64,000 nt of DNA from Macrostomum lignano. Lineage: Eukaryota. How positions within the stretch are numbered: position 1 is the first letter of the stretch; each line of letters begins with the position of its first letter. The position numbers were made by a program, and so were the translations under genes. The notes below the pieces were generated by a model, which saw only the letters and a list, made by a program, of their open reading frames with translations, was not told where the DNA came from and made no database searches. The stretch spans positions 1-64,000 of the forward strand of contig NIVC01001565.1 of the NCBI GenBank assembly GCA_002269645.1, given 5' to 3'. This document shows positions 4,845-64,000 of this stretch, in pieces.

Positions 4845-5160
4845 CTCTCCAACCCCCTAAACAACCGCCCTGGCACCCCATAGCAGTCAGTGGGATAAAC
4901 TCCCCGAAACAACCGCCCTGACATCCCATAGCAGTCAGTGGGATAAACTCCCCAAATCCCCAAAACAACCGCCCTGGCACCCCATAGCAGTCAGTGGGAT
5001 AAACTCCCCAAATCCCCAAAACAACCGCCCTGGCATCCCATAGCAGTCAGTGGGAAAAACTCCCCAAATCCCCTAAACAACCACCCTGACACCTCAGCAG
5101 TCAGCGGGATTAAACTTCTCAAATCCCCAAAACAACCGCCCTGACACTCATAGCAGTCAC
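4845..5160 (-). repeat. 56-bp tandem repeat 3' of SUMO copy 1
   Basis: Reverse complement of the array at 18120-18520, with more degenerate units. Confidence 0.88.
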
Positions 5161-5187
5161 CGAGAATGAGTCGCACAGCCCAGCTGC

Positions 5188-5454
5188 TCACACGCAGCCG
5201 CCGACCTGAGACTGGAACACCTCAATCGTGTCATTCTCCTCCATGTCCAACGTGGCCGGGGTGTCCGACTCCTCCACATTGTTTCCGTCGAAGATGAAGC
5301 GGACGGTCTGTGCCCGAAGGCCCAGCCTATCGCAGTAAGTGGTCATCAGCTTCCTCAGCGGGGTGTTCTTCTTGATCTTGAAGTGGATCACGGCCCCGTC
5401 CTGGCCCTGCACCTTCAGGTTGATGTGCTCGCTGGAGGCGTTGGTTCCCGACAT
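5188..5454 (-). CDS. SUMO: Small ubiquitin-like modifier (SUMO), intronless, 88 aa, copy 1
   Basis: [53 protein letters not shown]. This is a SUMO/Smt3 pattern with a di-Gly motif and a 2-aa tail. Confidence 0.96.
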
Positions 5455-6110
5455 GCTGGCTGCTGAGTAGTGCTCAAGTGAGAGCTCACTGGCTGAAAGA
5501 GAAGCGAGTGGGTGAGGAGTGAGCAACTCAGTGCTGAGTAGTGCTCAAGTGAGAGCTCACTGGCTGAAAGAGAAGCGAGTGGGTGAGGAGTGAGCAACTC
5601 AGTGCTGAGTAGTGCTCAAGTGAGAGCTCACTGGCTGAAAGAGAAGCGAGTGGGTGAGGAGTGAGCAACTCAGTGCTGAGTAGTGCTCAAGTGAGAGCTC
5701 ACTGGCTGAAAGAGAAGCAAGTGGGTGGGGAGTGAGCAACTCAGTGCTGAGTAGTGCTCAAGTGAGAGCTCACTGGCTGAAAGAGAAGCGAGTGGGTGAG
5801 GAGTGAGCAACTCAGTGCTGAGTAGTGCTCAAGTGAGAGCTCACTGGCTGAAAGAGAAGCGAGTGGATGAGGAGTGAGCAACTCAGTGCTGAGTAGTGCT
5901 CAAGTGAGAGCTCACTGGCTGAAAGAGAAGCGAGTGGGTGAGGAGTGAGCAACTCAGTGCTGAGTAGTGCTCAAGTGAGAGCTCACTGGCTGAAAGAGAA
6001 GCGAGTGGATGAGGAGTGAGCAAATCAGTGCTGAGTAGTGCTCAAGTGAGAGCTCACTGGCTGAAAGAGAAGCAACTGGGTGAGGAGTGAGCAACTCAGT
6101 GCTAAGTAGT
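5455..6110 (-). repeat. 71-bp tandem repeat (about 9 copies) immediately 5' of SUMO copy 1
   Basis: Period 71 (e.g. 5461 to 5532). The last unit runs into CAGCAGCCAGC-ATG. Confidence 0.95.
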
Positions 6111-6565: not shown

Positions 6566-7318
6566 GTATAGTCTTATTAACTTGACTATTTGATCATTTA
6601 TTAAAAACTAAAGTAGCACTTTAAATATTCATATTATTAATTTATGAAGCCAAAAAATATGATTTTTAACCAAAGGCAATAATAGCTAATATATTACAAA
6701 AATGTTTATATATAAGAATTATGATTTAATGTTTTTAATTATATAGTTTATATATGCAGACCTAGTTTTTTGATAGTTATAAATGTAATTTTTGAGCTAA
6801 TAACAATAATTTTTTATTTTGTTGTGATAACTAACAGGATATTAAGTACAACAATAAGTATTTAAAATAAGATAATATTCATAGAAAGAAAGCCATGATT
6901 ATATATTTTTAAATATCAAACCTATAAGAAACCAATAGAAATCTTTAGCAACTTATAAAGAAAAAATGTACCAACTTATGAAACTTATCAAATATAGAAC
7001 AAAAGGAAATAGCATAGCATAGGCCTAGCAACTTTCTTATATACTTTTAAAGGAAACTTTTACTTTTACTTTTATTATTATATTAGTTTTAGCAACAATT
7101 TTTTCACTTTTTTATTATTTTCTTTAAAAAATGCATTTTATATTTAGTTTAACATTGTCAAATGACAATGAACACTTTCTATGTTTTCTTATATTATAGT
7201 CAGAGATATTATAGCATCTTGACTTTTTAAATTGCATTTTTTCATTAGATTAGGGGGCCTAGACCTTGTCCTTAGCTTAGAACAATTTTGCATCCTAGCA
7301 TTAGCAAAAAATAGGTGC

Positions 7319-16015: not shown

Positions 16016-17419
16016 AGTTCCCCATTTAACAACATAGAATTGTTCAAAAACAAAAATGTAATATCCATATTATAGAGCTCTTGGGCCTAATGGCCTAATA
16101 GGCCTTGGGGGCACAATGAAGATTAGTGCAGGTGAATGTCTAGCCATCTAGTCATTGCAAGCAATGATTGGGGATAATCAGTTGAAACTTACTGAGATAC
16201 AGGTTTATAATAGCTATATGGTTATAATTAAAAAAATCAATTAAACTAATAAATATAACTAAACTGAACAATTTGTATCATTAAATCTGTTTCCTATCAC
16301 AATGGTGTGATATTTGTCTATGGTATAAAGTTTCAAGACAAAGTAGTGACTCAAAAAAGATATTCATGTTTGATCAGACTTTCTAAACAATCTTTATACT
16401 AGTAGTATATAGACTTAGTAGTGTAAGATTTAGTATATTATGTCTATACTATTGACCTGAGTGGCCTTATGGCACTTTTTGTATTTTGTATCTTTCTTTT
16501 ATAGCTTTCATCTATTTAGATTTTCTCTTAGTCTAGGTCTGGGTGTTCCCAGGATCAGAAGGTCATGGCTCTACACTCAAATCCATTACACAATATGCCA
16601 AAAATTGACTCCCTACAAACAAATTTATTTGTGATATATATACTAGACATTACTAGACTATACTAGACAAGCAATTGTTAAAGAGCCAAAAAGGTGACTG
16701 TACCTAGTTTCTTATGCAGAAAACTATGGGCTATATGTTCCTTTGAGTTTAGGCTTAGGATATTAAGATATCCTAATATCAAACTTTAGGGACTAAATGT
16801 AAGAAAAAGCAAATCAAATGTTTTTATAAAACTTCCATTATTTTTCTTTTTAAATGGAATAAGGAATTTAAAAGTTTGTTATTTTTCATTTCAATGCTAA
16901 TGCTTGATTACCCCTTAACAAAAGATTCTTTTTAAATAAAGGTTTATTGAGAACAATACACAAACACAAAAGCCTCATACTGTTTTATTTATTTATTATT
17001 GTCAATATATAAAAAGAGCAGGAAGTGCATTCATACATTCAAAGTAACATCCATCATATTTAGAAGTATTTGATTGATGTGACCACAGGGTTTTAATTCT
17101 CTAGTTAGCATGTCTGAAAGGCAAAGAATGAAACATTAAATATTAATATACTGGTATCTATCAAATTGTCGTAATTACCTTGAGCTTTAGCACAGCTTTA
17201 TGAATATGAAGGAAAGTTATGATAGCTATTTAAATTTGCAAGATTTAGTAGTTTCTACTAGTGTAAATATCTACACCAGAATTGCAATAAAACAATGTCT
17301 AGACTTCCAAAATGTTTGTTTTGTCATTAATTTTTCAAAGAGTAAGTCAAGTTTTAGATTCTTCTGACTAACTTTGAAGCTAGACTGCTGGCTAAATAAG
17401 CACTGCCTTCTTTTATTAG

Positions 17420-17820
17420 CTTCTCTTTCAACCAGCGAGCTCTCACTTGAGCACTACTTAGCACTGAGTTGCTCACTCCTCACCCACTTGCTTCTCTTTC
17501 AGCCAGCCAGCTCTCACTTGAGCACTACTCAGCACTGAGTGGCTCACTCCTCACCCACTCGCTTCTCTTTCAGCCAGTGAGCTCTCACTTGAGCACTACT
17601 CAGCACTGAGTTGCTCACTCCTCACCCACTCGCTTCTCTTTCAGCCAGTGAGCTCTCACTTGAGCACTACTCAGCACTGAGTTGCTCACTCCTCACCCAC
17701 TCGCTTCTCTTTCAGCCAGTGAGCTCTCACTTGAGCACTACTCAGCACTGAGTTGCTCACTCCTCACCCACTCGCTTCTCTTCATGCCAGTGAGCTCTCA
17801 CTTGAGCACTAATCAGCAGC
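17420..17820 (+). repeat. 71-bp tandem repeat (about 5.5 copies) immediately 5' of SUMO copy 2
   Basis: Reverse complement of 5455-6110. Confidence 0.95.
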
Positions 17821-17824
17821 CAGC

Positions 17825-18091
17825 ATGTCGGGAACCAACGCCTCCAGCGAGCACATCAACCTGAAGGTGCAGGGCCAGGACGGGGCCGTGATCCACTTCA
17901 AGATCAAGAAGAACACCCCGCTGAGGAAGCTGATGACCACTTACTGCGATAGGCTGGGCCTTCGGGCACAGACCGTCCGCTTCATCTTCGACGGAAACAA
18001 CGTGGAGGAGTCGGACACCCCGGCCACGTTGGACATGGAGGAGAATGACACGATTGAGGTGTTCCAGTCTCAGGTCGGCGGCTGCGTGTGA
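17825..18091 (+). CDS. SUMO: SUMO, intronless, 88 aa, copy 2 (inverted duplicate)
   Basis: Protein identical to copy 1. Only one synonymous difference (AAC vs AAT, Asn) was seen by eye. Confidence 0.96.
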
Positions 18092-18119
18092 GCAGCTGGG
18101 CTGTGCGACTCATTCTCGG

Positions 18120-18520
18120 TGACTGCTATGGGATGTCAGGGCGGTTGTTTTGGAGATTTGGGGAGTTTATCCCACTGACTGCTATGGGGTGTCAGGGCGG
18201 TTGTTTTGGGGATTTGGGGAGTTTATCCCACTGACTGCTATGGAGTGTCAGGGCGGTTGTTTTGGGGATTTGGGGAGTTTATCCCACTGACTGCTATTGG
18301 GTGTCAGGGCGGTTGTTTTGGGGATTTGGGGAGTTTATCCCACTGACTGCTATGGAGTGTCAGGGCGGTTGTTTTGGGGATTTGGGGAGTTAATCCCACT
18401 GACTGCTATGGAGTGTCAGGGCGGTTGTTTTGGGGATTTGGGGAGTTTATCCCACTGACTGCTATTGGGTGTCAGGGCGGTTGTTTTGGGGATTTGGGGA
18501 GTTAATCCCACTGACTGCTC
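18120..18520 (+). repeat. 56-bp tandem repeat (about 7 copies) 3' of SUMO copy 2
   Basis: GACTGCTATG recurs at 18121 and 18177, and GACTGCTA continues the 56-bp period at 18233. Confidence 0.93.
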
Positions 18521-43715: not shown

Positions 43716-44093
43716 TCACCAAGTGCACTAACCAAATGATACAATTTATTGTAAGTGAGCAACAATATCAACTACCCCAACCCTAGGGCTAAAATATCCA
43801 CAGTGTATATTGACATTATACACATGCACAGAGTTAAAATGACAAACAAACTGAAGGAATAAAACAACCCTAACCCCTATGCAAAGACCCAATAATAATG
43901 TTATACTAATTTACAAGGGCTATTTGTTGCAATAATTATATATTCTACTTTTATATTTAAACTGCTAAATATAAAATTAAGCTTAAAGAACATAATTTAA
44001 TGCTTTAGTTGAATAGTGAATAGCTTTTCTATGTCATTTAATTGCTGAGTTATGACTCATTAAGTGACAAGACCACATTCAGGATCATGTAAT

Positions 44094-44937
44094 TGAGGCA
44101 GTGTAATATATCTGCTTTACAGTATGAAATATGGCTTTATTTTTAGTCTACGCAAACAATTGCTTTCTTAGAAATTACTATATTCAAATTTCCGGCAAAT
44201 ATTTTTGTTTTAACGTTGTGTGCGCAAATAATATTGTAGAAAATCAAAGTTTGTTTTAAATATATACGAAATAGTATAAATAGGAGCCCAGATGGGGCCA
44301 AGAAGAGCAACTTGCTCACTTCATTCGCTTGCTTGAATAATATTGAAGCAATAAGTTTACTCAATAAGAAATCTTTAAGCATTCTTATTTGGATTGTTCA
44401 TTTCTATAAGTATTACCCCCGAATTGGGAGAAGATCGCTAACAGCGAGAAATCGCCTAAGGGCAGTAACTGTAAATTCGCCTCAGGGCAAGAGAACCACC
44501 TCATAGCGAGAGAAGATCGCCTCAGGGCAAGGAAAACGCATAGAGCTGTGACCCTCTGATCCAGGGAACGCCCAGGACTGAGAGAATAATACGTTAGGGG
44601 AAGTATAGGAATAGAATAGACAGTGCCAATAGACTGCTCAGGCCAGAAGGTACAATAGAAGTACATACGCTACCAATAGAAGTACATACGCTACCAATAG
44701 AAGTACATGCGCTACCAGTAGAAATACAATTAACAACCAATAGAATTGTTAAGAAGAAATAGCTTTGTAACAACTTTGGTTACAGCGGTAGGATTTTGTA
44801 TCGTACGGGAACACCCTTGGCCTTACGACAACTTTGGTGGCATTTAGTGGGATTCTCATAGGGAGTCAAAAGACCTGTTACAACTTTGGTGGCAGCAAGT
44901 AAGGCTAGACAAAGGAATAAATAAGAGCCCTGGGACA
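44094..44937 (+). mobile_element. Solo LTR A (844 bp, Gypsy-like) with three PBS-like units at its 3' end
   Basis: TG...CA termini, TAAT 4-bp TSD (44090-44093, 44938-44941), TATAAATA at 44275 and homology to 46378-47277. Confidence 0.7.
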
Positions 44938-46377
44938 TAATATATGCCCAAAAATTTGGATGTGCATTGGCCTTGTATGCCAAAAGTTAGATATGCACAA
45001 TTGGTGTACATTATTCCTAAGAAAATAGTGTGCATATATACCTAGTATGCACTTATAGATTCATGCAAAAAAGTTAATGTTAAATAGAAAAAAAAATTAG
45101 AAAGTTTAGTTCAAAGTTCATAAATTTCAAGCTTTCTAGTATTTAAGATTGCAATAAGGCATTTAAACAAAAGTTTGTATATATCAATTTTCTGCTATAA
45201 ATAGTATTAGGCAAAAAAGATAAATAATAAACAAAGTTATTAGCCAAAAGGTCTTTTATGCAATACCAAAAGGGTTATTTACTGTTGCAATTTTTAGTAT
45301 GCATTTGTAACTATTTAATTTTTGTTCAGGTATGTACCTAGCATGATCTGGACTATTGTCACTATGATAATGAGGTTTAAGAAAAGGAATTGCAAATTTG
45401 ACTTAACACTACAAAAACTTTGTCTTTAGCAGATAGTCACAAATATTTTGACTTTTCTTGAGCTTTGTCTATTGATTGAGTGATTTACATGGCAGATTAG
45501 GTCATAAGGAGAAATTCAGGGCTGCTATATATCCAATTCCTATATATATAGCCTATAGGCCTATAGACTATAGTGTCTTTGTATATATGTACTTAGTAAC
45601 TTAGGGATCAATGAATTAGACAGGTCCATGCCTTCTCACTAGGCCTAGCTAGTCAAATTGAAATAGCGATTTTTTCTTGGACCTTATTTGGCTTAGACAG
45701 GAAGCCTGTTTGGCACATATATATCAATGTATTTAATAAAAATTCAAGAATAGAAGAAAAACCTTATGCATAAGTACGAGTTTGCAATAATATAGTATTT
45801 AAAATAAAAAAATGCCTAAATTTTTTCTTTGAAACTTTGAATGAGCTTTAATGACTAACAAAGCAAGAAGTATTTAGGTAAAGAATTAAAAAACAAGTAT
45901 TGTATGCACTTGATATATAGCAATTCAATTAATTGATCCTGTAGGTGATAAAAATAAGTATATAGGTATTAATCAGATAATAACATGATAACATGATATG
46001 ATATTTGAAAGAGTGTCTACCATAGTCAGCAAGGTGGCCTTTTTGCTTGAAAATTCTAGTGTGCATTAGCCATTCATAGTTCATTTGGCGTGAATTTAGC
46101 ATGCTTGAATCTTTAACAAATTGCATTTGGCATATTGTGTACACAACAAAATTGCATTTGGCATACAAAAAAGTGATATACAAAGCTAACTTAAAAAAAC
46201 AAGTATCAATAAGTTTCTGTAACAATAGTATCAATACTTCAAAGAAAAATGATGTGGTTAAAAGATGACGAAAGTACAATTAGAAAAAATTATATTAAAG
46301 AATGTGATAGTGCTTTTTTTAATAACTTAAGTACTAGGACTTTGTGTAACTGCAAGTTATTGTAAAGGAAAAAGGCA

Positions 46378-47277
46378 TGTAACAGGCCTTTTGGCTCTCT
46401 ATGAGAATTCCACCGTTATGCCACCAAGTTGTGGTAGGGGTGTTCCCGTATGATACAAAATCCTACCGCTGTAACCAAGTTGTGGCAGGGGTTACTTTTG
46501 TCTCTAATAATAATTTCACACTGTCACCAAAGTTGTACTAGGGCTAAACTAATCTTTTAAGTTGGTAGCTGCCACCAGGATTATCCTATTAATAAATTGT
46601 GAGTTTATCAATCTTAGAATAATCCGAGAAATGTTTCTTAGAATTGATCTGAGTATATATCTTAGTATTTAGTCTGAGTATTTAGTCTGAGTATTTAGTC
46701 TGAGTATTATTCTTAGAAAAACTGTTAGCCCTGAAAGATTTTACTCTTCTAATTATTCTGGTAGCGTTCTATCTAATAATGGCCTGAGCAGTATTTTAGC
46801 TTACTGGTATATGTATTTCATGTACTTTGCAAGTCCTTGGGCGTTACCGAGATCAGAGGGTCACAGCCTCCGTTATTCTTACACGTATTACTTCAGATCT
46901 ACTTCGCAACTTCTTACTACTCAACACTTTCCTTCTCAGTAGTATATATGGTCCACACTTCCGTCTACTTCACTCTTACTTCTTAAAAGGAATTAACACA
47001 GAAAACACTTCTTCAATTCTTAATTTTCTTGGAACTCTTACTATTCGTTATAACTATATTATTAGTGAACCGCGATGCGCAAGGTTGGTTCTCCCTCTGC
47101 CGAATTTGCTTGTATTTATAGGAAAATTCTAGTAGATTTTAAACAAAAATTAGTTTGCGTAAAATATTATACAAAACATAAGTATTAAAACAAAAATGTG
47201 TTGTAGTTTTTGGCGTGAATTTAAAGTGTAATAAACGATAGCTATTTTTAGAAAGAAATCGGGAGGGGCCCTATACA
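46378..47277 (-). mobile_element. Solo LTR B (900 bp), diverged relative of LTR A, with four PBS-like units
   Basis: Minus-strand TG...CA, imperfect 4-bp TSD (GGCA/GACA on +) and TATAAATA at 47120-47113. It shares GCTGTGACCCTCTGATC (46867-46851 vs 44545-44561) and other blocks in the same order as LTR A. Confidence 0.65.
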
Positions 47278-48872: not shown

Positions 48873-49229
48873 TGTAATAGTGCTCAATTTGCGTGCGCGT
48901 GCACTTCTAGTGTTTTCTCCGTATTTCTTTCTGCGTCACCCCACCCCTGCGTATAGCCTTTTCTAGAAATTCCTTTTTGTTTCTGATTGGCTGAAAACGC
49001 GTGAATAACGAGCCCCAACCAATAGAGTGCTTAGTGCCTACCCTATCGGCGAAATCCGATTGGTTAGGATTTTCTAAGCTGCGTTTTTCACCCTGCCCTC
49101 CCCCATCGCGGTCAGTCTATTTAATCAAGCAAGCTGGAACGCAAATAAATCAAGTTTTGAAGTTGAAGTTGAAGTTTTTCTCTGACTAAAGAAGTCCCGG
49201 CAGTTCAAACTCAAGAATACGCGGCTACA
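48873..49229 (+). repeat. 5' LTR of the Gypsy element
   Basis: TGTAATAG...GGCTACA; contains CCAAT boxes, TATTTAA and AATAAA. Confidence 0.96.
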
Positions 49230-49253
49230 TTGGCGACCACGCCAGTTTTCCAC

Positions 49254-50378
49254 ATGTGGAATAACGACGACTACCTGGAACTACGTGGACGTCTCGTCGG
49301 ACGACGGCGCAACGCAGGCGACGAGGCAGCTTCCGTTTCTACAGAGTCTACGAACGCGTCCAACCCCTTCGTGTCGATGACCACAGTCAGCGAAGCCACA
49401 AATCCCTTCCTCGTTGCCAACGACCTTCAGAGGGCACACTCGGCGGAAGTCTCAACCAACCCGTTCCTTGAAGACATCGACCAAGCGTCAGGGCAGGCCT
49501 CAGCAATGCAGCAGTACGCCTATCCTCCAGCTCACGGATACGCAGCGCTGCCAGACTACAATCCAGTACCGGCTCTTCCGCCAGTACCTAAGCCTGCACC
49601 GTACAACGGTCGGGAGGATTTCGACGACTTTCTCATCAGGATCAGCGCCTATATTAGCCGGTTCCCAGGCCTTCGAGACGCCGACAAGATCAACACCCTG
49701 ACTGCGTTCCTCGGACCGGCTTTTGCAACGTACACCACCTGGCTGGCGATCCAGTGTGCCTACGTCGGACTGCCACCGGGGACAACCCTGGACCAGCTAC
49801 CTGGTGTCCGCTATGAGGGCCTCGTTGAACACCTCCGGTCTCGTCACGGCGGGGCCAAGAGTGCAGCGTTACTTCGCCGCGAGTTCCGTGCTCGGCAGCG
49901 TCGACCAGAGGAGAGCTTCGAAACGTACCTGACGGAGCTTCAACGGCTAGCTGCAAGGGCATACCCGGACCCAAGAGCTCAGGCTTACGTCCAACAGACA
50001 GTTAGCGAGCAGTTCATGCATGGTCTCAATGACGGCTACGTCACCGAGCGACTACTGAATCAACCAACACCACCAAGCACTGTGGAGCAGGTTCTACGAA
50101 TAGCCCAGCAGCTTCGAGAAACCCGGGCCTACATGGATGCTGGCCGTGGCGAAATCCAGCCCCAGCAACCGAGACCACCACAGAGCCAACTTTCAGCGCC
50201 ACCGAAACCACTAATGCCTCAGCAGCCTGCCTCATCTGGCGGTCGCGGACAGCAACGACAGCAATCACCGGCTAGTTCCAACTGTTTCGGCTGCGGTCAG
50301 CCGGGCCACATCCGACGCAATTGCCCAAACGCCGAGGGGGCTGGTTCACGAGGCCAGCACCGGCCCTCTCAGCACTAA
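49254..50378 (+). CDS. gag: Gag polyprotein with a CCHC zinc knuckle
   Basis: First ATG at 49254. Capsid-like region (PYNGREDFDDFL..., RRQRPEES..YLTELQRLA) and CFGCGQPGHIRRNC. Confidence 0.93.
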   Translation: MWNNDDYLELRGRLVGRRRNAGDEAASVSTESTNASNPFVSMTTVSEATNPFLVANDLQRAHSAEVSTNPFLEDIDQASGQASAMQQYAYPPAHGYAALPDYNPVPALPPVPKPAPYNGREDFDDFLIRISAYISRFPGLRDADKINTLTAFLGPAFATYTTWLAIQCAYVGLPPGTTLDQLPGVRYEGLVEHLRSRHGGAKSAALLRREFRARQRRPEESFETYLTELQRLAARAYPDPRAQAYVQQTVSEQFMHGLNDGYVTERLLNQPTPPSTVEQVLRIAQQLRETRAYMDAGRGEIQPQQPRPPQSQLSAPPKPLMPQQPASSGGRGQQRQQSPASSNCFGCGQPGHIRRNCPNAEGAGSRGQHRPSQH

Positions 50379-53300
50379 CGCATTCGGCCTCAACACCACG
50401 CCTCAGCAGCTGCCAGCCTGGCCAGGTGCGCTTCGTCACAGCGCGCATCCTTAGACGACGGCGCCACTGTCTGATCGACACCGGGGCAGAGGTGTCCTGC
50501 ATCAGCGATGACATATGTAAGAAAGCTAGGCGGCGGCTGCAGCCCAGCAGCATCATCATAAGAGGCGTGGATGGCAACCTACAGTCTGTGCTGGGCGAGA
50601 CTACTTTGGCAGTGACTCTGGGAACCGTACAAGTCCATCATCGTTTCGTCGTACTCGAGAAGCTTCACCCGACGTCCGTCATCCTGGGCTGTGACTTCCT
50701 CAGTGAACACGACGTCTCGGTCCATCTCCAAGCCGGTTGCATCACTTTCAACAGCCTAGGCGTGTCGATTCCAGCTCGAAAAAGTAAAGAGGCAGCACAG
50801 ACCTGCAAGCTCGTATCAGCGGCCTCCGTGCAGCTGCAGCCAGGGGAGCGCTGGATAATCCCCGTTAAACCAGCAAAGTCGGCCTCGTGGACGCGATCGG
50901 AGTGTCCAGGAGTCGTCACCGGCACAAGATCACAGGGGCTCCTGGTGGGTCGTTGTGTTGCCAAGCTGGTCGAGAGAGGCATGGGCCTAGCAGTCATCAA
51001 CGTCGACGACCACACGGTCAACATCAGCGACGGCGACATTGTTGGCATCTTTTCCCCGTTAGGAAGTCAGCCATTTGTTCAGCAATCGGGTGCCGCTGGC
51101 AGCACGGCGGCGACGGCCGCTGGCAGCACGGCGGCGACGGCCGCTGGCAGCACGGCGGCGACGGCCGCTGGCAGCACGGCGGCGACGGCCGCTGGCAGCA
51201 CGGCGGCGACGGTCGCGGTCAGCACGGCTACATCAACAACAGCTTTAGCGACGGACTTACCTCGCACCAACTGGCTGAACGACGTGCACATCGAAAGCTC
51301 TATCTCCGTCGAAGAGCAACAGTCGGTCAAGGATTTGCTGTTAGAGTTCAGCACCGTTTTTGCATCCCCTGGCAATGCTGGTCGAACTGCAGTCCTGCAG
51401 CATCGCATCGACACCGGCGGGGCAAGGCCGATCCGGCAGGGTTTGCGGCGTGCAGCGCGTCCAGTCATCGACAAGCAGGCCGAATTGATCGACGACATGC
51501 TGACCAAAGGAGTAATCCGGCCGTCTTCATCGCCTTGGGCTTCGCCAATCGTGCTTGTTCGTAAGAAGGACGGGACAGCGCGCTTTTGCTTAGACTATCG
51601 ACTGCTCAATGAGGTCACCAAGCCGGACGCTTTTCCAATTCCGAGGATCGACGACACACTCGATGCGCTGCAAGGCAACGCCTACTTCTCGGCACTCGAT
51701 CTGGAGAGTGGCTACTGGCAGGTTGAGGTCGAGGAGCGCGACAAAGAGAAAACTGCTTTCATCTGCCATCAAGGCCTCTTCGAGTTCAACGTCATGCCGT
51801 TTGGTCTGCGCAATGCCCCGGCAACCTTTCAACGCCTCATGCAGCTGGTGCTCCAAGGCCTGACCTGGCAAGCGTGCCTGGTCTTCATCGACGACGTTAT
51901 TGTCATGGGCCGGACTATCGAGGAGCACAACTATCGGCTGCGGGCGGTGTTCGAGCGGCTGCGGGACGCGAACCTACGCTTGAAGCCATCTAAATGCCAT
52001 TTCGCCAACACCACGATGATCGTCTTGGGCCATCGAGTTTCCAAGTCGGGTATCACCGTCGACGAGTCAAAGACTGCTGCGATCCGAGACTGGCCTACAT
52101 CCCGAACTTCCAAGGAGGTCAAGAGCTTCCTAGGTCTCGCAGCCTACTATAGACGGTTCATTCGGGATTATTCAAAGATCGCCGAGCCGCTACGACGCCT
52201 GACGGTTCCGACAGAAAGGTTTCAGTGGACGTCCAAGGCCCAAGAAGCATTCGACCAACTGAAGGCAACACTGACCTCTGCTCCAATCCTCGCCTTCCCG
52301 GATACTAGTGCGACCAGCTCGGAGTTCATTCTGGACACTGACGCCAGCGACTGCGCCATTGGTGCGGTACTCTCTCAACTGCAGGCGGGCGAAGAACGAG
52401 TCATCGCGTACTCCAGCAGAGCACTAACAAAAGCCGAGCGCAACTACTGTGTAACGAGGCGGGAGCTGCTGTCCGTCGTTGAGCATGTCAGGAAGTTCCG
52501 GAATTACCTGCTGCCTCGGAAGTTCACCGTGCGGGTCGATCATCAGTCTCTAACGCACCTGCTGACATTCAAGGAGCCCGAAGGTCAACTCGCGCGGTGG
52601 CTGCAGACGCTAGACGAGTTCGACTTCAGAGTACTCTATCGGCCGGGCCGTCAACACAACAACGCCGATGCGCTGTCCCGTCAGCAGCAGCGCTGTACCA
52701 ACCAGTGTCGGGTGTGTCGACCAACAAATGAGACCACCAGCAGGACGACATCCTCGGTTGCCTGCCAGACCGACGCCAACAGTGATGCCGCCGCTGCCGC
52801 CCAGATCAACGCAGTGACCATCAAGCTAGTGTCGACGGCTACCGACGAAGCTGTTCAGACCGACAATGTGCATGTCTGCGTCGGCACCGTGCCATCAAGG
52901 CGCAAGCAAATCCATCAGCCCCGGTCGGACGACAGCGAAGAAAGCAGCAGCAGCGAGGACGACACCAACGAAGATGAATCCGCAGCGCCAGCGGCAGACA
53001 ACAGGCCACCGACGCTACGTATGCTTCAGCTGCAGGATCCGGTTATCAGTCCGGTGTTCCGACTGCTGGCCGACGGCAAGACTAGGTTTACCGACCGACA
53101 ACGCGACCGAGTACCGCCGGAGAGCCTGGTGCTGGCGCAGAAGGTGCATGACTTGTGTTTCGTGAACGGTACACTGCACAGGCTGGTCAACACAAAGCCA
53201 GTACCCGTCATTCCCCGCTGCCGACAACGCGAATTTGTCGACGAGATTCACAACGTCGGCCACCTGGGCGAAGTCAAGACGCTGGCCAGCCTAAAGACGC

Positions 53301-54364
53301 GTTGCTACTGGCCAAAAATGTCGGAGAGCGTCCGGTTGGCCGTTCGGTCATGCCAGGTTTGCCAGCGGGCAAAGACTCCGGTTATCAAGCGGGCGCCGCT
53401 ACAGTCCATCACTGCAGGGTTTCCAATGCAGCGTGTCGGGTTCGACATTGTCAAGGTCGGCGCTTCCAGAAACGGCAACGATCGGATCCTGAGCATCGTC
53501 GACTACTTCAGCAAGTGGACGGAGCTGGTGCCGATTCCGGACGAGAAGGCGACGACAATTGCCAAGGCCCTCTTCAACAACTGGATCTCCAGGTGGGGTG
53601 CTCCGCATATTCTCCACTCCGACCGCGGCAAGAGCATCGATGGCCGCATCATTCGCAGTCTCTGTACACTATTGGAGGTCGACAAGACTCGAACGTCGGG
53701 CTATCATCCTCAATGTGACGGCCTCGTGGAGAGATTTCATCGGACACTCCATCAGATGTTGCGCTGCCACCTTCAAACTGTCGATCCGCTGGACTGGGAG
53801 GACGCCCTGCCGTACTGTCTCCTAGCCTATCGAAGCAGCATCAGCGCGACGACCGGATTTTCCCCACATTTCCTGATGACGGGCCGGGAGGTGGTTCTGC
53901 CATTGGACGTTGTCTATCGGTCCCCAGAGCCTCCATCCGTCGTCGGCCAGTACGCAGTAGAGACCATTCAACGACTGCAGGACGCCTTTGACGCTGTGCG
54001 GAGGTCAACTGGCGCGGCTCAACGACGGCAGAAGCGGTACTACGATCTGAAAGCCCAGAAGCGCAAGTTTCGCACCGGCGATCTAGTGTGGCTGTTCGTT
54101 CCGCCTGCTGTGCTGTCCAGGACCAACTGTCTGCCTCCGAAGCATCAATCACCGTGGACAGGCCCATTTAAAGTCATGCGCAAGACATCACCTGTCAACT
54201 ACTTGGTGCGGCCGATCAATTACACGGACGGGGAGATCAAGGGGCGCGTCGTGCATGTCAACAAGTTGAAGCGAGCGTGTCTGCAACGGACCCAGTCTGT
54301 TCAGCGTGCTGATCAGGACGCCAGTAGTGACGATGAAGGGCAACTTGTTGACGCTGAGGACTGA
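50321..54364 (+). CDS. pol: Pol polyprotein (protease, RT, RNase H, integrase) in the -1 frame relative to gag
   Basis: LIDTGAEVS protease, SPWASPIVLV..KKDG..RFCLDYR, FIDDVI, ILDTDASD, the HHCC region (HNVGH..CQVC), DDE core and C-terminal WTGPF. The 1347-aa frame is uninterrupted. Confidence 0.96.
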   Translation: MPKRRGGWFTRPAPALSALTHSASTPRLSSCQPGQVRFVTARILRRRRHCLIDTGAEVSCISDDICKKARRRLQPSSIIIRGVDGNLQSVLGETTLAVTLGTVQVHHRFVVLEKLHPTSVILGCDFLSEHDVSVHLQAGCITFNSLGVSIPARKSKEAAQTCKLVSAASVQLQPGERWIIPVKPAKSASWTRSECPGVVTGTRSQGLLVGRCVAKLVERGMGLAVINVDDHTVNISDGDIVGIFSPLGSQPFVQQSGAAGSTAATAAGSTAATAAGSTAATAAGSTAATAAGSTAATVAVSTATSTTALATDLPRTNWLNDVHIESSISVEEQQSVKDLLLEFSTVFASPGNAGRTAVLQHRIDTGGARPIRQGLRRAARPVIDKQAELIDDMLTKGVIRPSSSPWASPIVLVRKKDGTARFCLDYRLLNEVTKPDAFPIPRIDDTLDALQGNAYFSALDLESGYWQVEVEERDKEKTAFICHQGLFEFNVMPFGLRNAPATFQRLMQLVLQGLTWQACLVFIDDVIVMGRTIEEHNYRLRAVFERLRDANLRLKPSKCHFANTTMIVLGHRVSKSGITVDESKTAAIRDWPTSRTSKEVKSFLGLAAYYRRFIRDYSKIAEPLRRLTVPTERFQWTSKAQEAFDQLKATLTSAPILAFPDTSATSSEFILDTDASDCAIGAVLSQLQAGEERVIAYSSRALTKAERNYCVTRRELLSVVEHVRKFRNYLLPRKFTVRVDHQSLTHLLTFKEPEGQLARWLQTLDEFDFRVLYRPGRQHNNADALSRQQQRCTNQCRVCRPTNETTSRTTSSVACQTDANSDAAAAAQINAVTIKLVSTATDEAVQTDNVHVCVGTVPSRRKQIHQPRSDDSEESSSSEDDTNEDESAAPAADNRPPTLRMLQLQDPVISPVFRLLADGKTRFTDRQRDRVPPESLVLAQKVHDLCFVNGTLHRLVNTKPVPVIPRCRQREFVDEIHNVGHLGEVKTLASLKTRCYWPKMSESVRLAVRSCQVCQRAKTPVIKRAPLQSITAGFPMQRVGFDIVKVGASRNGNDRILSIVDYFSKWTELVPIPDEKATTIAKALFNNWISRWGAPHILHSDRGKSIDGRIIRSLCTLLEVDKTRTSGYHPQCDGLVERFHRTLHQMLRCHLQTVDPLDWEDALPYCLLAYRSSISATTGFSPHFLMTGREVVLPLDVVYRSPEPPSVVGQYAVETIQRLQDAFDAVRRSTGAAQRRQKRYYDLKAQKRKFRTGDLVWLFVPPAVLSRTNCLPPKHQSPWTGPFKVMRKTSPVNYLVRPINYTDGEIKGRVVHVNKLKRACLQRTQSVQRADQDASSDDEGQLVDAED

Positions 54365-54628
54365 CTAACGCAGATTGAGGGCTGACTGACTGGTATTAGC
54401 CAACAATTTTGCTTTATATACTCGTAGGTCGTACGTCTAGGACTTTTTAATAGCGTTAATCTATTAGCTTGGCAATCCTGATTTAGGTTTAATTGTTCGA
54501 AACCCGGTTATCTCGATTTGTTCTATTAGCTATCAGCTGGTTCTGTTCTTCCCTATAGCAGTAGCTTTCATCTGTCGTTCCACCCCTTGGGTTTAATGAG
54601 GACATTAAACTGTTGAAAGGGGAGCTTT

Positions 54629-54985
54629 TGTAATAGTGCTCAATTTGCGTGCGCGTGCACTTCTAGTGTTTTCTCCGTATTTCTTTCTGCGTCACCCCAC
54701 CCCTGCGTATAGCCTTTTCTAGAAATTCCTTTTTGTTTCTGATTGGCTGAAAACGCGTGAATAACGAGCCCCAACCAATAGAGTGCTTAGTGCCTACCCT
54801 ATCGGCGAAATCCGATTGGTTAGGATTTTCTAAGCTGCGTTTTTCACCCTGCCCTCCCCCATCGCGGTCAGTCTATTTAATCAAGCAAGCTGGAACGCAA
54901 ATAAATCAAGTTTTGAAGTTGAAGTTGAAGTTTTTCTCTGACTAAAGAAGTCCCGGCAGTTCAAACTCAAGAATACGCGGCTACA
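54629..54985 (+). repeat. 3' LTR of the Gypsy element
   Basis: Same sequence as 48873-49229. Confidence 0.96.
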
Positions 54986-57383: not shown

Positions 57384-57780
57384 CAGGGGCGTCGCCATGG
57401 ATTTAATGGTGAGGGGGACAAAGCCAAGAATTCAACATGTACATGACTAAATTTTCGTACTCATTTTAGCGCCGCAGGCACTCATTTTAGCGCCGCAGGC
57501 ACTCATTTTAGCGCCTCAGGCACTCATTTTAGCACCGCAGGCACTCATTTTAGCGCCGCAGGCACTCATTTTAGCACCGCAGGCACTCATTTTAGCGCCG
57601 CAGGCACTCATTTTAGCGCCGCAGACAGTCATTTGGGCGCCGAAGACGCTATAATTTGGCGCACTGTAGAAAAATTACTGATTACCACAAGGGGGGTGGG
57701 GGGGGACAAAGCATTGGCATGTCCCCCCCAGAGCTTTTACTGGGGGGGGACATGTCCCCCCCCCGGTGGCGACGCGCCTG
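57384..57780. mobile_element. 397-bp hAT-type MITE carrying a 21-bp tandem repeat
   Basis: TIR CAGGGGCGTCGCCA / TGGCGACGCGCCTG (13/14) and a perfect 8-bp TSD AACGATCA. Internal (GCACTCATTTTAGCGCCGCAG) x about 7. Confidence 0.9.
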
Positions 57781-57859
57781 AACGATCAAGTCAACGCGAT
57801 GCATGCAAAATATAGTCTTATCTTTGTTGATGGGTTGGGTTCAAGTGGATAAATTTTGC

Positions 57860-58275
57860 GATTCTTCCAGAGTGACGACTTTCTACACCCTACGATTCTT
57901 CCAGAGTGACGACTTTCTGCACCCTGCGATTCTTCCAAAGTGACGACTTTCTACACCCTGAGGCTCTTCCAGAGTGACGACTTTCTGCATGGACCCTGAG
58001 TTTCTTCCAGAGTGAAGACTTTCTGCACCCTGCGATTCTTCCAGAGTGACGACTTTCTACACCCTGCGATTCTTCCAGAGTGACGACTTTCTACACCCTG
58101 CGATTCTTCCAGAGTGACGACTTTCTGCACCCTGCGATTCTTCCAGAGTGACGACTTTCTGCACCCTGCGATTCTTCCAGAGTGACGACTTTCTACACCC
58201 TGAGGTTCTTCCAGAGTGACGACTTTCTACACCCTGCGATTCTTCCAGAGTGACGACTTTCTACACCCTGCGATT
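57860..58275. repeat. 34-bp minisatellite (CGATTCTTCCAGAGTGACGACTTTCTACACCCTG)n
   Basis: About 12 tandem copies. Confidence 0.93.
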
Positions 58276-58819
58276 TGTACACCACGCAGACCGACCGATC
58301 TTCTGCCCAAAATTTGCTTTATTTTTCGCATTAAAAATGACTTGGCGGCTATTGCTACCTAAAAGGAGCTGTGGAATTTTCCTGTCGCACCTTTGTTGTT
58401 TCAGCGCAACTCTGCCTAGGAGAATTCCTGCACTGTGGGAATGCAGGGCAGAACAATAACCCCAAGTGGGGGACTCAATTTATTCGACTTCTTTTCTTAG
58501 AATAAAGAACTGCATTTAGGAGAGAGAGAAAATGGCCACCTGCTCGGTTGGCTACGGGTAAATTGAAGAAAAAATGGTCCCAGGGGGGGGGCAATGCGCA
58601 CACAGACCGATCAAGGCGAGGGGTGGGGCACCAGGGAGCTTTCATAGAGAAGAATGGCGGAGCAGTTTTAGGCCGGCCACTGAGAGCTGAACTGTGCTCA
58701 TTTTAACGGTCGGCTCGACTAAGGAGTTCCACAAACAGGAGCCCGGAGATGTGACACTCCACTAAGCCTCCGTTTGCAGACAATTGAAAGCTGACTGTAC
58801 ACTTGGCGACTATCCACGG

Positions 58820-59268
58820 TAACCTAAACCCTAACCTAAACCATAACCTAAAACCCAACCCTAACCTAAACCATAACCTAAAACCCAATCCTAACCTAAA
58901 ACCCAACCCTAACCTTAAACCCTAACATAAGACCCAATCCTAACCTAAAACCCAACCCTAACCTAAAATCCTAACATAAGACCCAACCCTAACCTAAAAC
59001 CCAACCCTAACCTAAAACCCAACCCTAACCTAAACTCTAACATAAGACCCAATCCTAACCTAAAACCCAACCCTAACCTAAAACCCTAACATAAGACCCA
59101 ATCCTAACCTAAAACCCAACCCTAACCTAAAACCCTAACATAAGACCCAATCCTAACCTAAAACCCAACCCTAACATAAACCTCAACATAAACCCTAGCC
59201 TAAACCCTAACCTAAAACCAACCCCAGCCTAAACCCTAACTTAAAACCCAACCCTAACCAAAACCTAA
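58820..59268. repeat. Degenerate CCCTAA/CCTAAC-rich (telomere-like) tandem repeat
   Basis: AAACCCAACCCTAACCTAA-type units with scattered perfect CCCTAA hexamers. Confidence 0.85.
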
Positions 59269-59824
59269 AGGCTCTTCAGATTTATCGTGACAGTTGGCAA
59301 AGCTGTCTGTTGAGCACAAAATGCACGAATCGATTGCAACTAAAATCGTTGAGGTATTAAAAAAAACTTCTTAACGTCTAGTAGAAAAATCCAGTCAGCC
59401 TAAAATCGAAGGAAGCTGGGGGGTCCCGGAGTTACTCGAAACCGGGTTCTGCTTCTGGGTCTCCTCGACTCGAGCCACGTCGCTCAGTGAATCGGCTATT
59501 TGCTCGCGATAAATAGAAACTACAACAGACGGCTATTATAACTGGCTGATGAAGAGCAGGGAGCGGATTTCTAAGAATCCAGGGCGCCGAATAAATTATT
59601 TAACTGGCCGGGCAATTGGGTTTTTTTGGCGTGGAGCTCTGCATTTTGTTAATCCCGGGTGGAAATTAACTCTAGGAAGCATCTGATTCTCCTTTGTTTC
59701 TTTGCGGAGATATAAAAATTTTGGGTAAATCCTCGGGACTCTATTCCTTAAGCGGAGGGGTATGGTTGCTGGCTATCTCAGTTGCATGACAACTCATTTA
59801 ATGAGCAGTCAGTGTGAATCAGTC

Positions 59825-60562
59825 TTATCGCAGGCACTCATTTTGGCGCCGCGGTAGATACTCATTTTGGCGCCACAGGCACTCATTTTGGCGCCACAGG
59901 CACTCATTTTGGCGCCACAGTAGGTACTCATTTTGGCGCCTCAGTAGGTACTCATTTTGGCGCCACTGGCACTCATTTTGGCGCCACTGGCACTCATTTT
60001 GGCGCCACATGCACTCATTTTGGCGCCTCAGTAGGTACTCATTTTGGCGCCACTGGCACTCATTTTGGTGCCACAGGCACTCACTTTGGTGCCACAGGCA
60101 CTCATTTTGGCGCCACATGCACTCATTTTGGCGCCTCAGTAGGTACTCATTTTGGCGCCACTGGCACTCATTTTGGTGCCACAGGCACTCACTTTGGTGC
60201 CACAGGCACTCATTTTGGCGCCACATGCACTCATTTTGGCGCCTCAGTAGGTACTCATTTTGGCGCCACTGGCACTCATTTTGGTGCCACAGGCACTCAC
60301 TTTGGTGCCACAGGCACTCATTTTGGCGCCACAGGCACTCATTTTGGTGCCACAGGCACTCATTTTGGCGCCACAGGCACTCATTTTGGCGCCACAGGCA
60401 CTCATTTTGGCGCCACAGGCACTCATTTTAGCGCCGCATGCACTCATTTTAGCGCCGCAGGCACTCATTTTGGTGCCACAGGCACTCATTTTGGCGCCAC
60501 AGGCACTCATTTTGGTGCCACAGGCACTCATTTTGGCGCCACAGGCACTCATTTTGGCGCCT
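59825..60562. repeat. 21-bp minisatellite (CACTCATTTTGGCGCCACAGG)n, about 35 copies, related to the hAT-MITE internal repeat
   Basis: Unit nearly identical to that at 57475-57630. Confidence 0.93.
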
Positions 60563-61729
60563 GAAGAAAATTTTTTTATTTCAGTAACGGATCACAAAGG
60601 TGTCACGCGGGAAAAGCATTGGCATGTCTAAGCAAAGAATTCTCTCACCCTCCCCCCTAAGTTTCAGCTTTCCTCTCCCAGATGTCACACCTCAGAGCTC
60701 CTTGACTGTTCGGCTGTGCAGAGGAATGAAAAGAGAGGGGGAGAGGACTGCCCCTTCTTAGACTGAAGAAGCGCATACAAGAAAGCAAAGCCAGTCAAGA
60801 CTTGTTCTCTATAATTGGTCGAATTCAAATTAGGCTGAGGCAGCTCACTCCGGGAAACCGAACAGAGGAAAATAGAAGCTGGCGCTGAATTCGTGGGGAA
60901 ATCTGGGAGAAAAGGGGGTGGGCAAACAACACCGAAGCAGCAGTGAGGCTTGGCCCCGGCAGCTGTCTGGGGGTCAGAGAGTAGTAGTCTCTGTAATTGA
61001 GTTGACCTGACTGGCATGTTTGCCGTCTTAGAGAATCCCCCCTCCATCCTTTTTTGCTCAAATCCTCGAGCCTGCAGTCACGCCCAACAGAAGCAGCAAG
61101 ACCATTTTCTTCTTTCACTCAGCTTCTTTGGGATCACATTTATGCTAAGCCATTCGAATATCCCCAGTGCCATTGGAGAAGCTGGCAGCAAGGTCTCGCT
61201 CTGCTCTCGATCGGAAATGGAATCTTCCTTTTATTTTCATTTCGCCGCGCCGATTCTGATGGGGGCGCCGTTTGCTCAGAATGAGCGAGCGGAACTGCCG
61301 AGGCGTTGCCAGGGCTGGGGGGGGGGAGAAACTGATGAGCCCCTTTCTCGGTCGGAAAAGGGTTATGAGTTGTCGGTCAGTGCGCGTCCTTCCCTCATCC
61401 ATCCCCTGGTCCAGCTGGGCACCCGCTGTTTATTGTTGGCTAATAAAGGCGCTGACAGTGACAAATTGATGCTTGCAAGTCTGTCGGATTAGAATCCGGG
61501 ATGGCGGGATCCGAGAACCCCCCGATTGGGGTCGGCATTGGGATAAAAAGGAATTTCTTCTTTGTTGAGCAAACATCTGCTTTTGGCCTGCGTCTCACAG
61601 CTCCAGTTCGCATCTTTTCATATCTATCTGCTGCTCTGCCCTGTCTATCTGCACATCTCTGCTCAATAACTATCAAACGCGTAGCATACCCGTCTGCCTT
61701 GTATGCCATTGTATCCATATACAATGCAT

Positions 61730-62392
61730 CTATCTACCATGCATATATCTACCATGCGTCGATTTATCAGACATCTATCTACCAGATATCTATCTACCAT
61801 GCATCTATCTACCGTGTGTCTATCCACCATGTATCTACCTACCAGATATCTATCTACCATGTATCTATCTAACATGCATCTATCTAACATGTACCTATCT
61901 ACCATGCATCTATCTACCATGTGTCTATCCACCATGTATCTACCTACCAGATATCTATCTACCATGTATATATCTAACATGCATCTATCTACTATGTATC
62001 TATCTACCATGTGTCTATTTATTAGACATCTATCTACCAGATATCTATCTACCAGATATCTATCTACCAGATATCTATCCACCAGATATCTATCTACCAG
62101 ATATCTATCTACCAGATATCTATCCACCAGATATCTATCTACCAGATATCTATCTACCAGATATCTATCCACCAGATATCTGTCTACCAGATATCTATCT
62201 ACCAGATATCTATCCACCAGATATCTGTCTACCAGATATCTATCTACCAGATATCTATCCACCAGATATCTATCTACCAGATATCTATCTACCAGATATC
62301 TATCTACCAGATATCTATCCACCAGATATCTATCTACCAGATATCTATCTACCAGATATCTATCTACCAGATATCTATCTACCAGATATCTA
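61730..62392. repeat. 15-bp (ACCAGATATCTATCT)n / ATCT-rich minisatellite
   Basis: Directly visible; the RYLST/YLVDR ORFs are artefacts. Confidence 0.94.
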
Positions 62393-63269
62393 TTCATACA
62401 GACATTTAGAACAAGTCTTCTACCATATATTTACAAGCATTACCATACACAAACTCTGCCATCTCTACCCTTGTTTCTCCTCACCCTATTTATCTCCGTC
62501 TTTAAATTTGTCTCCCCACTTCATTGCATCCTGATAGATTCGAAAAAGAATATGAAAAATAGTTGGATAATTTTGTTGCTTTGAGTTCGCCTCTGAATAA
62601 ACGGTTTATCCACAGCACCCTGCCTGAACCCCCACATTTTCTGTTCAGCTTCAATTTACGCAAGTCTTCTCTGCATTGACCTCGGGCGCTCCGGTTTGCC
62701 TTGAGGCCCTGCCTGCCCGTCTCCCGCTCTCCTCCTTCTCAGTTGAGAACAATTCAATTTCTGGGAGAATTTCCCAAGTTTTATTGGCCGGGCTAATGGG
62801 GGTCAGGCGACCCCTCGGCGACAAGTGGACTGAGCTCATTACAACCGGCAAATTGTCTTCTGCCCCTCGGCCGCTCCCGCAGCCACAATGGTCAGAACTG
62901 TTGAATAATTTCATTCACAACCCCCGTTCCGGCTGATAAACAGCCTCAGGCTCTCGGCCCGATATTTTCCCTTCAATTCTCCCAGTTTCCTCATCCCATT
63001 ATCCCATCGGCACCAACAGACTCTAAATGCAGCTCTGTTTATCAACACTAGAAGCTTTGACAGAAAACTGAGTTACCGAGATTCAGTGAGTGCTGGGATC
63101 TCCTCTGGCTGAAATATTCGAGCAGTCAGGTTTTCCATACTTCTATAAGCCAGTAAGAATGAACTGGCTAGCAAACTATTCCTGACGAAATAATGCTTTG
63201 ATTTGAACGGTTTTTTCTAAAAATATAAATTTAGCAAACAATGGGAGACATAAGTAGAGAGGGAAACTT

Positions 63270-63780
63270 ATGTATAGAGGGAGAGAGAGAGGGAGACAGA
63301 GGGGTCGACGGAGAGGGAGACAGAGAGGAAGACAAAGAAGGAGACAACAAAGAGGGAGACAGAGAGGGAGGCAGAGAGGGAGGCAGAGAGGGAGGCAGAG
63401 ATAGAGACAACAAAGAGGGAGACAGAGAGGGAGGCAGAGAGGGAGGCAGAGAGGGAGACAAAGAGGGAGGCAGAGAGGGAGACGGAGAGGGAGACAGAGA
63501 GAGGGAGACAGAGAGGGAGGCAGAGAGGGAGACAGAGATAGACAACAAAGAGGGAGACAGAGAGGGAGGCAGAGAGGGAGACAGAGATGGAGACAACAAA
63601 GAGGGAGACAGAGAGGGAGGCAGAGAGGGAGACAGAGATGGAGACAACAAAGAGGGAGACAGAGAGGGAGGCAGAGATTGAGGCAGAGAGGGTGGCAGAG
63701 AGAGGACAGAGAGAGACTACAGAGAAGTAGACAGAGAGGGAGATACAGGGGGAGACGCAGAGAGACAAAAAAGAGGGAGG
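63270..63780. repeat. GA-rich compound repeat (GAGAGGGAGGCA/GAGACAACAAA)
   Basis: Directly visible. Confidence 0.9.
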
Positions 63781-63829
63781 CAGATAGGAAGACAGAGAAG
63801 AGATCTAGATGTTTCGGTTTGAGAGATGC

Positions 63830-63935
63830 GGTGAGATGCAGACAGGGGTGAGATGCAGACAGGGGTGAGATGCAGACAGGGGTGAGATGCAGACAGGGGG
63901 GAGATGCAGACAGGGGTGAGATGCAGACAGGGGTG
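63830..63935. repeat. 17-bp minisatellite (GAGATGCAGACAGGGGT)n
   Basis: About 6 tandem copies. Confidence 0.9.
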
Positions 63936-64000
63936 AATAGGCCCAGCCAGGACAGCTCAGGAGATGAAAATAATATTTTTATTCTCGGCCACGGAACGGA

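Follow-up and report, generated by a model that had tools for sequence, protein, structure and literature searches.

The 3' ends of LTRs in a tRNA-Leu-primed Ty3/gypsy clade of the flatworm Macrostomum lignano carry arrays of short units, each made up of a linker, a head resembling the tRNA-Leu primer-binding site (PBS), a spacer and an LTR-end-like tail ending in CA. This architecture is real and clade-wide, and its intermediate states are preserved in the genome. The LTR 3' end consists of interchangeable modules that are probably made and shuffled by misplaced plus-strand transfer and probably absorbed by downstream priming. The position of a single PBS is commonly taken to settle where an LTR ends; in this young multi-copy clade the ends differ by whole modules and the intermediates are kept.

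A three-unit array in a solo LTR

The analyzed window, a 64,000-nt stretch of M. lignano contig NIVC01001565.1, contains an 844-bp solo LTR of the clade at 44094..44937 on the plus strand (LTR A). Its TG..CA termini and the flanking 4-bp TAAT target-site duplications (TSDs; 44090..44093 and 44938..44941, +) agree with the initial annotation, as does the array in its 3' end, with heads starting at 44777, 44835 and 44887. A 21-bp tandem repeat in 3.6 copies (44653..44728, +) lies upstream of the array, and an LTR-end-like tail ending in CA (44771-44772) with a 4-nt linker (44763..44776, +) precedes unit 1 (44777..44830, +). Unit 2 (44835..44882, +) follows and, like unit 1, comprises a PBS-like head, a spacer and a tail ending in CA, while the tail of unit 3 (44887..44937, +) is the real LTR end and its spacer encloses an AATAAA motif at 44916-44921. 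The units measure 58, 52 and 57 nt (55 if the last is counted from 44883), and the word CAACTTTGG begins at 44771, 44829 and 44881.

Host tRNA-Leu(AAG) and tRNA-Leu(TAG) genes with a 3' end fitting the heads were retrieved and confirmed. The head of unit 1 is 3 edits from the tRNA complement and, as first annotated for tRNA-Leu(AAG), matches it at 16/19 positions without gaps; that of unit 2 is 4 edits from the 18-nt complement, and in unit 3 only the first 10 nt match (5 edits). The match exceeds chance, as none of 1000 dinucleotide shuffles of the 167-mer in the window gave three heads at 5 edits or fewer. Alignment of the units along their whole length, as in an ordinary VNTR, had been named as evidence of simple tandem duplication. 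Such homology is absent: the spacers, less their last 10 nt, fail to align (pairwise p = 0.64, 0.48 and 0.56), and with tails included units 2 and 3 are the sole pair to reach p = 0.012.

The three units are old, widespread types and no event is visible in them. The true LTR end of another copy (L021) is a close variant of the unit 1 tail, and units related to unit 2 terminate L024 and a second solo LTR of the window, LTR B. Copies ending as at 44937 with a 4-bp TSD were expected and found in all 10 other solo copies examined that carry this last unit; other copies of the clade also terminate on different unit tails. One solo LTR (L255) is 90% identical to LTR A over 793 bp and shares its start word, but its terminal four units are partly different. 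LTR B (46378..47277, minus strand, 900 bp, TSD TGTC/TGCC with one mismatch) harbors its own array of three clear units and a weak first head, the last tail being of the unit 2 type; its start and unit set differ from those of LTR A and it contains a 13-bp tandem repeat.

Array architecture across the clade

A full-length relative (G000:C2434/L031) encodes gag with a zinc knuckle followed by PR-RT-RH-IN. It has two TG..CA LTRs (97.7% identical, TSD TATA), a tRNA PBS after the 5' LTR and a polypurine tract before the 3' LTR, all of which identify it as a Ty3/gypsy element. Its best protein match is an M. lignano protein (94%). A third, proline/glutamine-rich open reading frame of 340-374 aa lies after pol on the sense strand (L031, 1519-2541, minus; L032, 7220-8344, plus); its C-terminal region is common to these two and the L031 frame has no Pfam match.

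From 150 matches listed in a gag search we took the top 30 and another 40 picked across the list. A 3' LTR was sought for 42 elements and found in 37 (not in 5); setting four of these aside (two interrupted, one tandem, one rearranged) left 33 cleanly comparable copies. The reverse transcriptases (RTs) of the 42 rows form a single clade with 100/100 support and 55-100% identity. Assignment to a named clade (Mag, CsRN1, Gmr1/Osvaldo or Mdg3/Micropia) rested on a single labelled reference, the Mlig-id38-like element of the window, which is 46% identical and falls outside. Two motifs of the clade, searched for a family name, gave no match in the supplements of PMC12801592.

The junction motif ACAACTTTGGTRRCA matches the 764-Mb genome 758 times, compared with 2 matches of its reversed control, and the perfect 19-mer 185 times against 0. 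These and the other copy counts are not independent, given related copies and a redundant assembly. The LTRs measure about 700-1300 bp, and their arrays comprise 1 to about 8 units, each of about 35-85 nt. Within a subfamily, the linker of a unit usually resembles the one that precedes the working PBS. Of 37 full-length 5' ends, 33 contain inner heads and four show none. The spacers are modules from a shared LTR-end pool whose order is shuffled between copies; some unit types recur within one array (L024) and in differing orders elsewhere. The array is not the stepwise repeat-spacer record that the initial annotation made of it, because module order is shuffled between copies; head decay is also flat over the last three array positions (4.0, 3.9 and 3.9 edits), and polarity along the whole array is weak (Spearman 0.21, p = 0.025). 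Inner heads lie 2-6 edits from the tRNA, and the first 10 nt are intact in 25 of 135 distinct inner units.

Many different tails serve as LTR end, each with a 4-bp TSD. Among solo LTRs this was seen in 25 of 27, the others being one with a mismatch and one unclear case; 13 of the 25 were delimited by a full-length start word, 11 by a family-like start recognized by eye and one after correction. Full-length copies gave 27 of 32 by a script that allowed several candidate ends per copy, and two more by reading. The LTR end stands directly before the gag-proximal PBS in 31 of the 33 comparable elements.

When 14 common spacer types were aligned to 46 leaders, none did better than shuffled sequence. 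No conserved folding was detected, either as head-tail hairpins (mean z -0.05 over 29 non-redundant units; own versus permuted tails, p = 0.61), in the window array (z -0.48) or as junction hairpins (p = 0.63 for inner and 0.91 for gag-proximal junctions). Exchange between subfamilies appears to extend to U3, because near-identical arrays, as in the 5' ends of L003-L030, are joined to several different LTR 5' halves.

Whole-unit moves of LTR ends and the working PBS

Two full-length copies (C391/L077 and C390/L087) carry after the LTR a perfect 18-nt PBS, one whole unit and then a second, imperfect PBS. The leader-located unit is absent from the 3' LTR, the LTRs are 99.9% identical and TSDs are present; this state occurs in only 2 of the 33 comparable copies. 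A third candidate, C221/L066, was rejected because of a rearranged 3' end, in which the last tail is present together with the TSD. In L166 the rearranged 3' end (about 6700-6900, oriented) shows a 3' LTR that halts early, then a further piece of polypurine tract with an LTR start, then a jump to the last unit and the TSD.

In C391 the 945-bp LTR and the spare unit in the leader together make 997 nt, which are 99.8% identical to the whole LTR C269a and 99.7% to C723a. Both of these include the unit within TSD-flanked LTRs; their TSDs differ, about 3 kb of internal sequence is absent, and the C391 leader is only about 92% like theirs over the 5' stretch. The change may have gone in either direction. 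Similarly, L021 (729 bp) stops one unit short of L016, L017 and L020, with which it shares the start word and 92-95% identity. Full-length copies with the array in both LTRs and a further PBS after the 5' LTR, as initially predicted, do exist, and some copies hold perfect heads in both of their LTRs, which are most simply read as once-working PBSs later drawn into U5.

The near-invariant spacer of the C391 unit occurs 17 times, 9 times behind a degenerate head of one type and 8 times behind a perfect head, with none between. The eight follow upstream units found in none of the nine, although they fall on two backgrounds and thus represent few independent events. Such a head switch with a new junction largely holds in five of the six spacer types scanned; the sixth has no perfect row, and among the types scanned one V-type neighbour is almost shared. 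The leader unit of C390 has no second occurrence in the genome and duplicates the terminal 31 nt of that copy's LTR, and L121 contains three identical 35-nt units, each restarting exactly after a GGGAT in the LTR end, GGGAT being the last five letters of the tRNA copy. When perfect-head units were compared with their nearest relatives (12 of 16 units, four rows without a close relative being dropped), 37/216 head positions and 39/387 spacer positions differed (Fisher p = 0.015); between degenerate-head pairs, heads and spacers diverge by 7.8% and 7.3%. The last unit bears a perfect head in 5 of 9 LTRs (2.2 expected, p about 0.04) in a tally made by hand, which omits two LTRs of unclear unit number and counts one lineage once.

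Retrovirus-type 18-nt copying of the tRNA may be reflected, if indirectly, at the gag-proximal, working PBS. Of 68 loci, 17 have a perfect site here and almost all of the remaining 51 carry an A-rich variant, in which the first 10-13 nt are kept and an A-rich stretch and GGAT follow; two duplicates were removed from this tally, and because the first 10 letters were used to locate the site, their conservation follows in part from the search. Perfect sites are scattered on an 18-copy tree (5 changes versus 4.9 when shuffled), which is itself poorly resolved (2 of 11 inner branches starred). No host tRNA gene fits the A-rich PBS, 12 of 13 pattern matches being the standard end if a canonical T-loop is assumed. 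The A-rich form is subfamily-specific (L066-L095 and L126-L165) and persists though perfect versions share its backgrounds. Its persistence in 51 of 68 loci beside perfect versions suggests that selection may act against a perfect working PBS. In retroviruses a 50:50 inheritance of the tRNA copy has been described (PMC4549124). In Ty1 and Ty3 the PBS descends from the element's own genome and not from the tRNA (PMC7472051). A tRNA-copy step is thus not the rule in the superfamily, which counts against taking it for granted in this clade.

Proposed mechanism, rival readings and related systems

The steps below are read from integrated copies, in which the products and TSD-verified ends are observed, and are likely on that basis. 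Plus-strand strong-stop DNA would end in an 18-nt copy of tRNA-Leu, as is known for retroviruses. This end would sometimes pair with a minus strand, either its own or that of a co-packaged relative, at one of the inner PBS-like heads or at a GGGAT microhomology. The product would consist of the LTR, a perfect PBS, a spacer and tail copied from the array, the old PBS and the leader, which is the layout of C391 and C390. A misplaced landing of this kind is suggested because the 18-nt tRNA copy of new units is perfect and stands at a new junction. If priming then took place at the downstream PBS, the unit would be placed in both LTRs, the layout of C269 and C723; priming at an upstream intact head would conversely shorten the LTR. 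Heads retained inside the LTR would mostly be damaged in their priming end, and any tail is usable for integration, as judged from the TSDs. As far as integrated sequences can tell, the array is most likely a self-feeding by-product of replication.

Somewhat unlikely, in our estimation, is a maintained, tRNA-addressed cassette, in which the tRNA-copied plus-strand end would be a universal adaptor for swapping, adding and removing LTR-end modules among co-packaged subfamilies, and retired primer sites putative sinks for 3' tRNA fragments. If true, it would represent a general, overlooked mode of LTR evolution among tRNA-Leu-primed gypsy elements of several animals.

We consider it unlikely that the U5-end/PBS junction was duplicated in ordinary tandem fashion and then drifted, with unequal template switching or ectopic recombination at the junction word and no tRNA copy. 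The similar lengths and common heads and tails of units, the near-identical tandem units in L118/L129, L121, C981 and C723b and the heavy order shuffling among degenerate heads are all consistent with such duplication, but it leaves unexplained the all-or-none appearance of a perfect 18-mer where the junction is new but the spacer is unchanged, the perfect heads of both leader-located units and the restart of L121 at GGGAT, and the spacers of the window units do not align.

Selection of arrays as decoys for 3' tRNA fragments (tRFs), a role raised by the initial annotation, or as tRNA docking sites or an LTR-end recombination cassette, seems very unlikely. Inner heads do persist in most 5' ends across the whole range of RT identity, and the working PBS is imperfect in 51 loci despite apparent repair, a pattern ascribed to tRF evasion in mouse ERVs (PMC7472051). 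Against this, tRF3a action is mismatch-sensitive (PMC7472051) and the heads are several edits off the tRNA, units and junctions lack conserved folding, four copies have no inner head, perfect heads are carried by sister clades, and the by-product model works without selection for the array. Strict PBS walking, the initial proposal that each new downstream PBS pulls the old PBS and leader into U5 as a dated record, is hardly likely at all: LTR ends do shift by whole units, some copies have perfect heads within both LTRs, often in last place, and decay has a weak overall polarity, but leader capture is largely refuted by the spacer comparison, an LTR-end tail closes every unit, and unit types vary in order and repeat within one array.

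Several known systems resemble the array in part. The laboratory dual-PBS HIV-1 of Li et al. 1997 reportedly shares the feature of an extra PBS. Natural HIV-1 of the MAL type has a 23-nt partial PBS duplication, likewise an extra PBS-like sequence beside the working one, but as a single partial copy downstream of the PBS with neither LTR-end tail nor array, and the available parts of the two sources report no shift of the LTR end (PMC3185550, PMC11181671). Retroviral, tRNA-templated PBS inheritance also leaves perfect and imperfect PBSs among near-identical copies (PMC4549124, PMC7472051); its 18-nt length fits the clade, and the scatter on the tree is as in ETn/MusD (PMC7472051). Here, in contrast, the element is Ty3/gypsy and the perfect 18-mer occurs additionally within the LTR or directly after it. 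Tandem arrays of the Cassandra and Helenus TRIMs repeat LTR-end/PBS junctions too, but as whole LTR plus internal domain of non-coding elements (PMC7215508, PMC10886601), whereas here about 50 nt around the junction are repeated inside each LTR of elements that encode gag and pol. Drosophila gypsy and Ty3 have more than one tRNA-binding site per genome, the second lying near the 3' end and pairing with another part of the tRNA (PMC1635307); in our clade all heads match one tRNA 3' end.

Ty3/Mdg4 families, thus the same superfamily, have been described from what appears to be the same host (PMC12801592). The terms 'PBS', 'primer binding' and 'tandem' are absent from the main text of that paper, and 'PBS' from its five supplements. 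The available portions of PMC4580426, 10.64898/2026.01.22.698655, PMC3601003, PMC13524379 and PMC3832253 contain no array description. As the initial annotation had supposed, we found no account of multi-unit LTR-end/PBS arrays inside LTRs in the literature searched, whose scope excludes Repbase and most subscription journals as well as an earlier M. lignano LTR classification and bioRxiv supplements that may describe them. As a natural readout in a tractable flatworm, the clade can show how much of the tRNA is copied during plus-strand synthesis of an animal gypsy element, how second-strand transfer goes astray and how priming is balanced against silencing by tRFs. Annotation tools that settle on the first PBS-like match can place LTR boundaries wrongly in families of this kind.

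Outside this genome, one exact double-PBS pattern was found with the same layout at three marine metagenome loci (L206, L207 and L208); among viral contigs, a double-PBS pattern had no matches. One of them (L207) is a 359-bp element with a 48-bp near-palindromic head, five PBS units and the TSD GCAT; its tail word is absent from the M. lignano genome.

Elsewhere in the window, a full-length Ty3/gypsy element at 48873-54985 (+) has LTRs of about 356 bp that are 100% identical, the TSD GCTA and open frames for gag and pol; its PBS is a different one, inner PBS-like heads are absent, and its LTR start matches the heat-inducible family Mlig-id38 (PMC12801592). Dense clusters of unrelated minisatellites with periods of 4-71 occupy 1-38600 and 57400-64000. 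The window also contains a large inverted duplication (5149-5860 versus 17419-18130) and a degenerate telomere-like array at 58820-59270.
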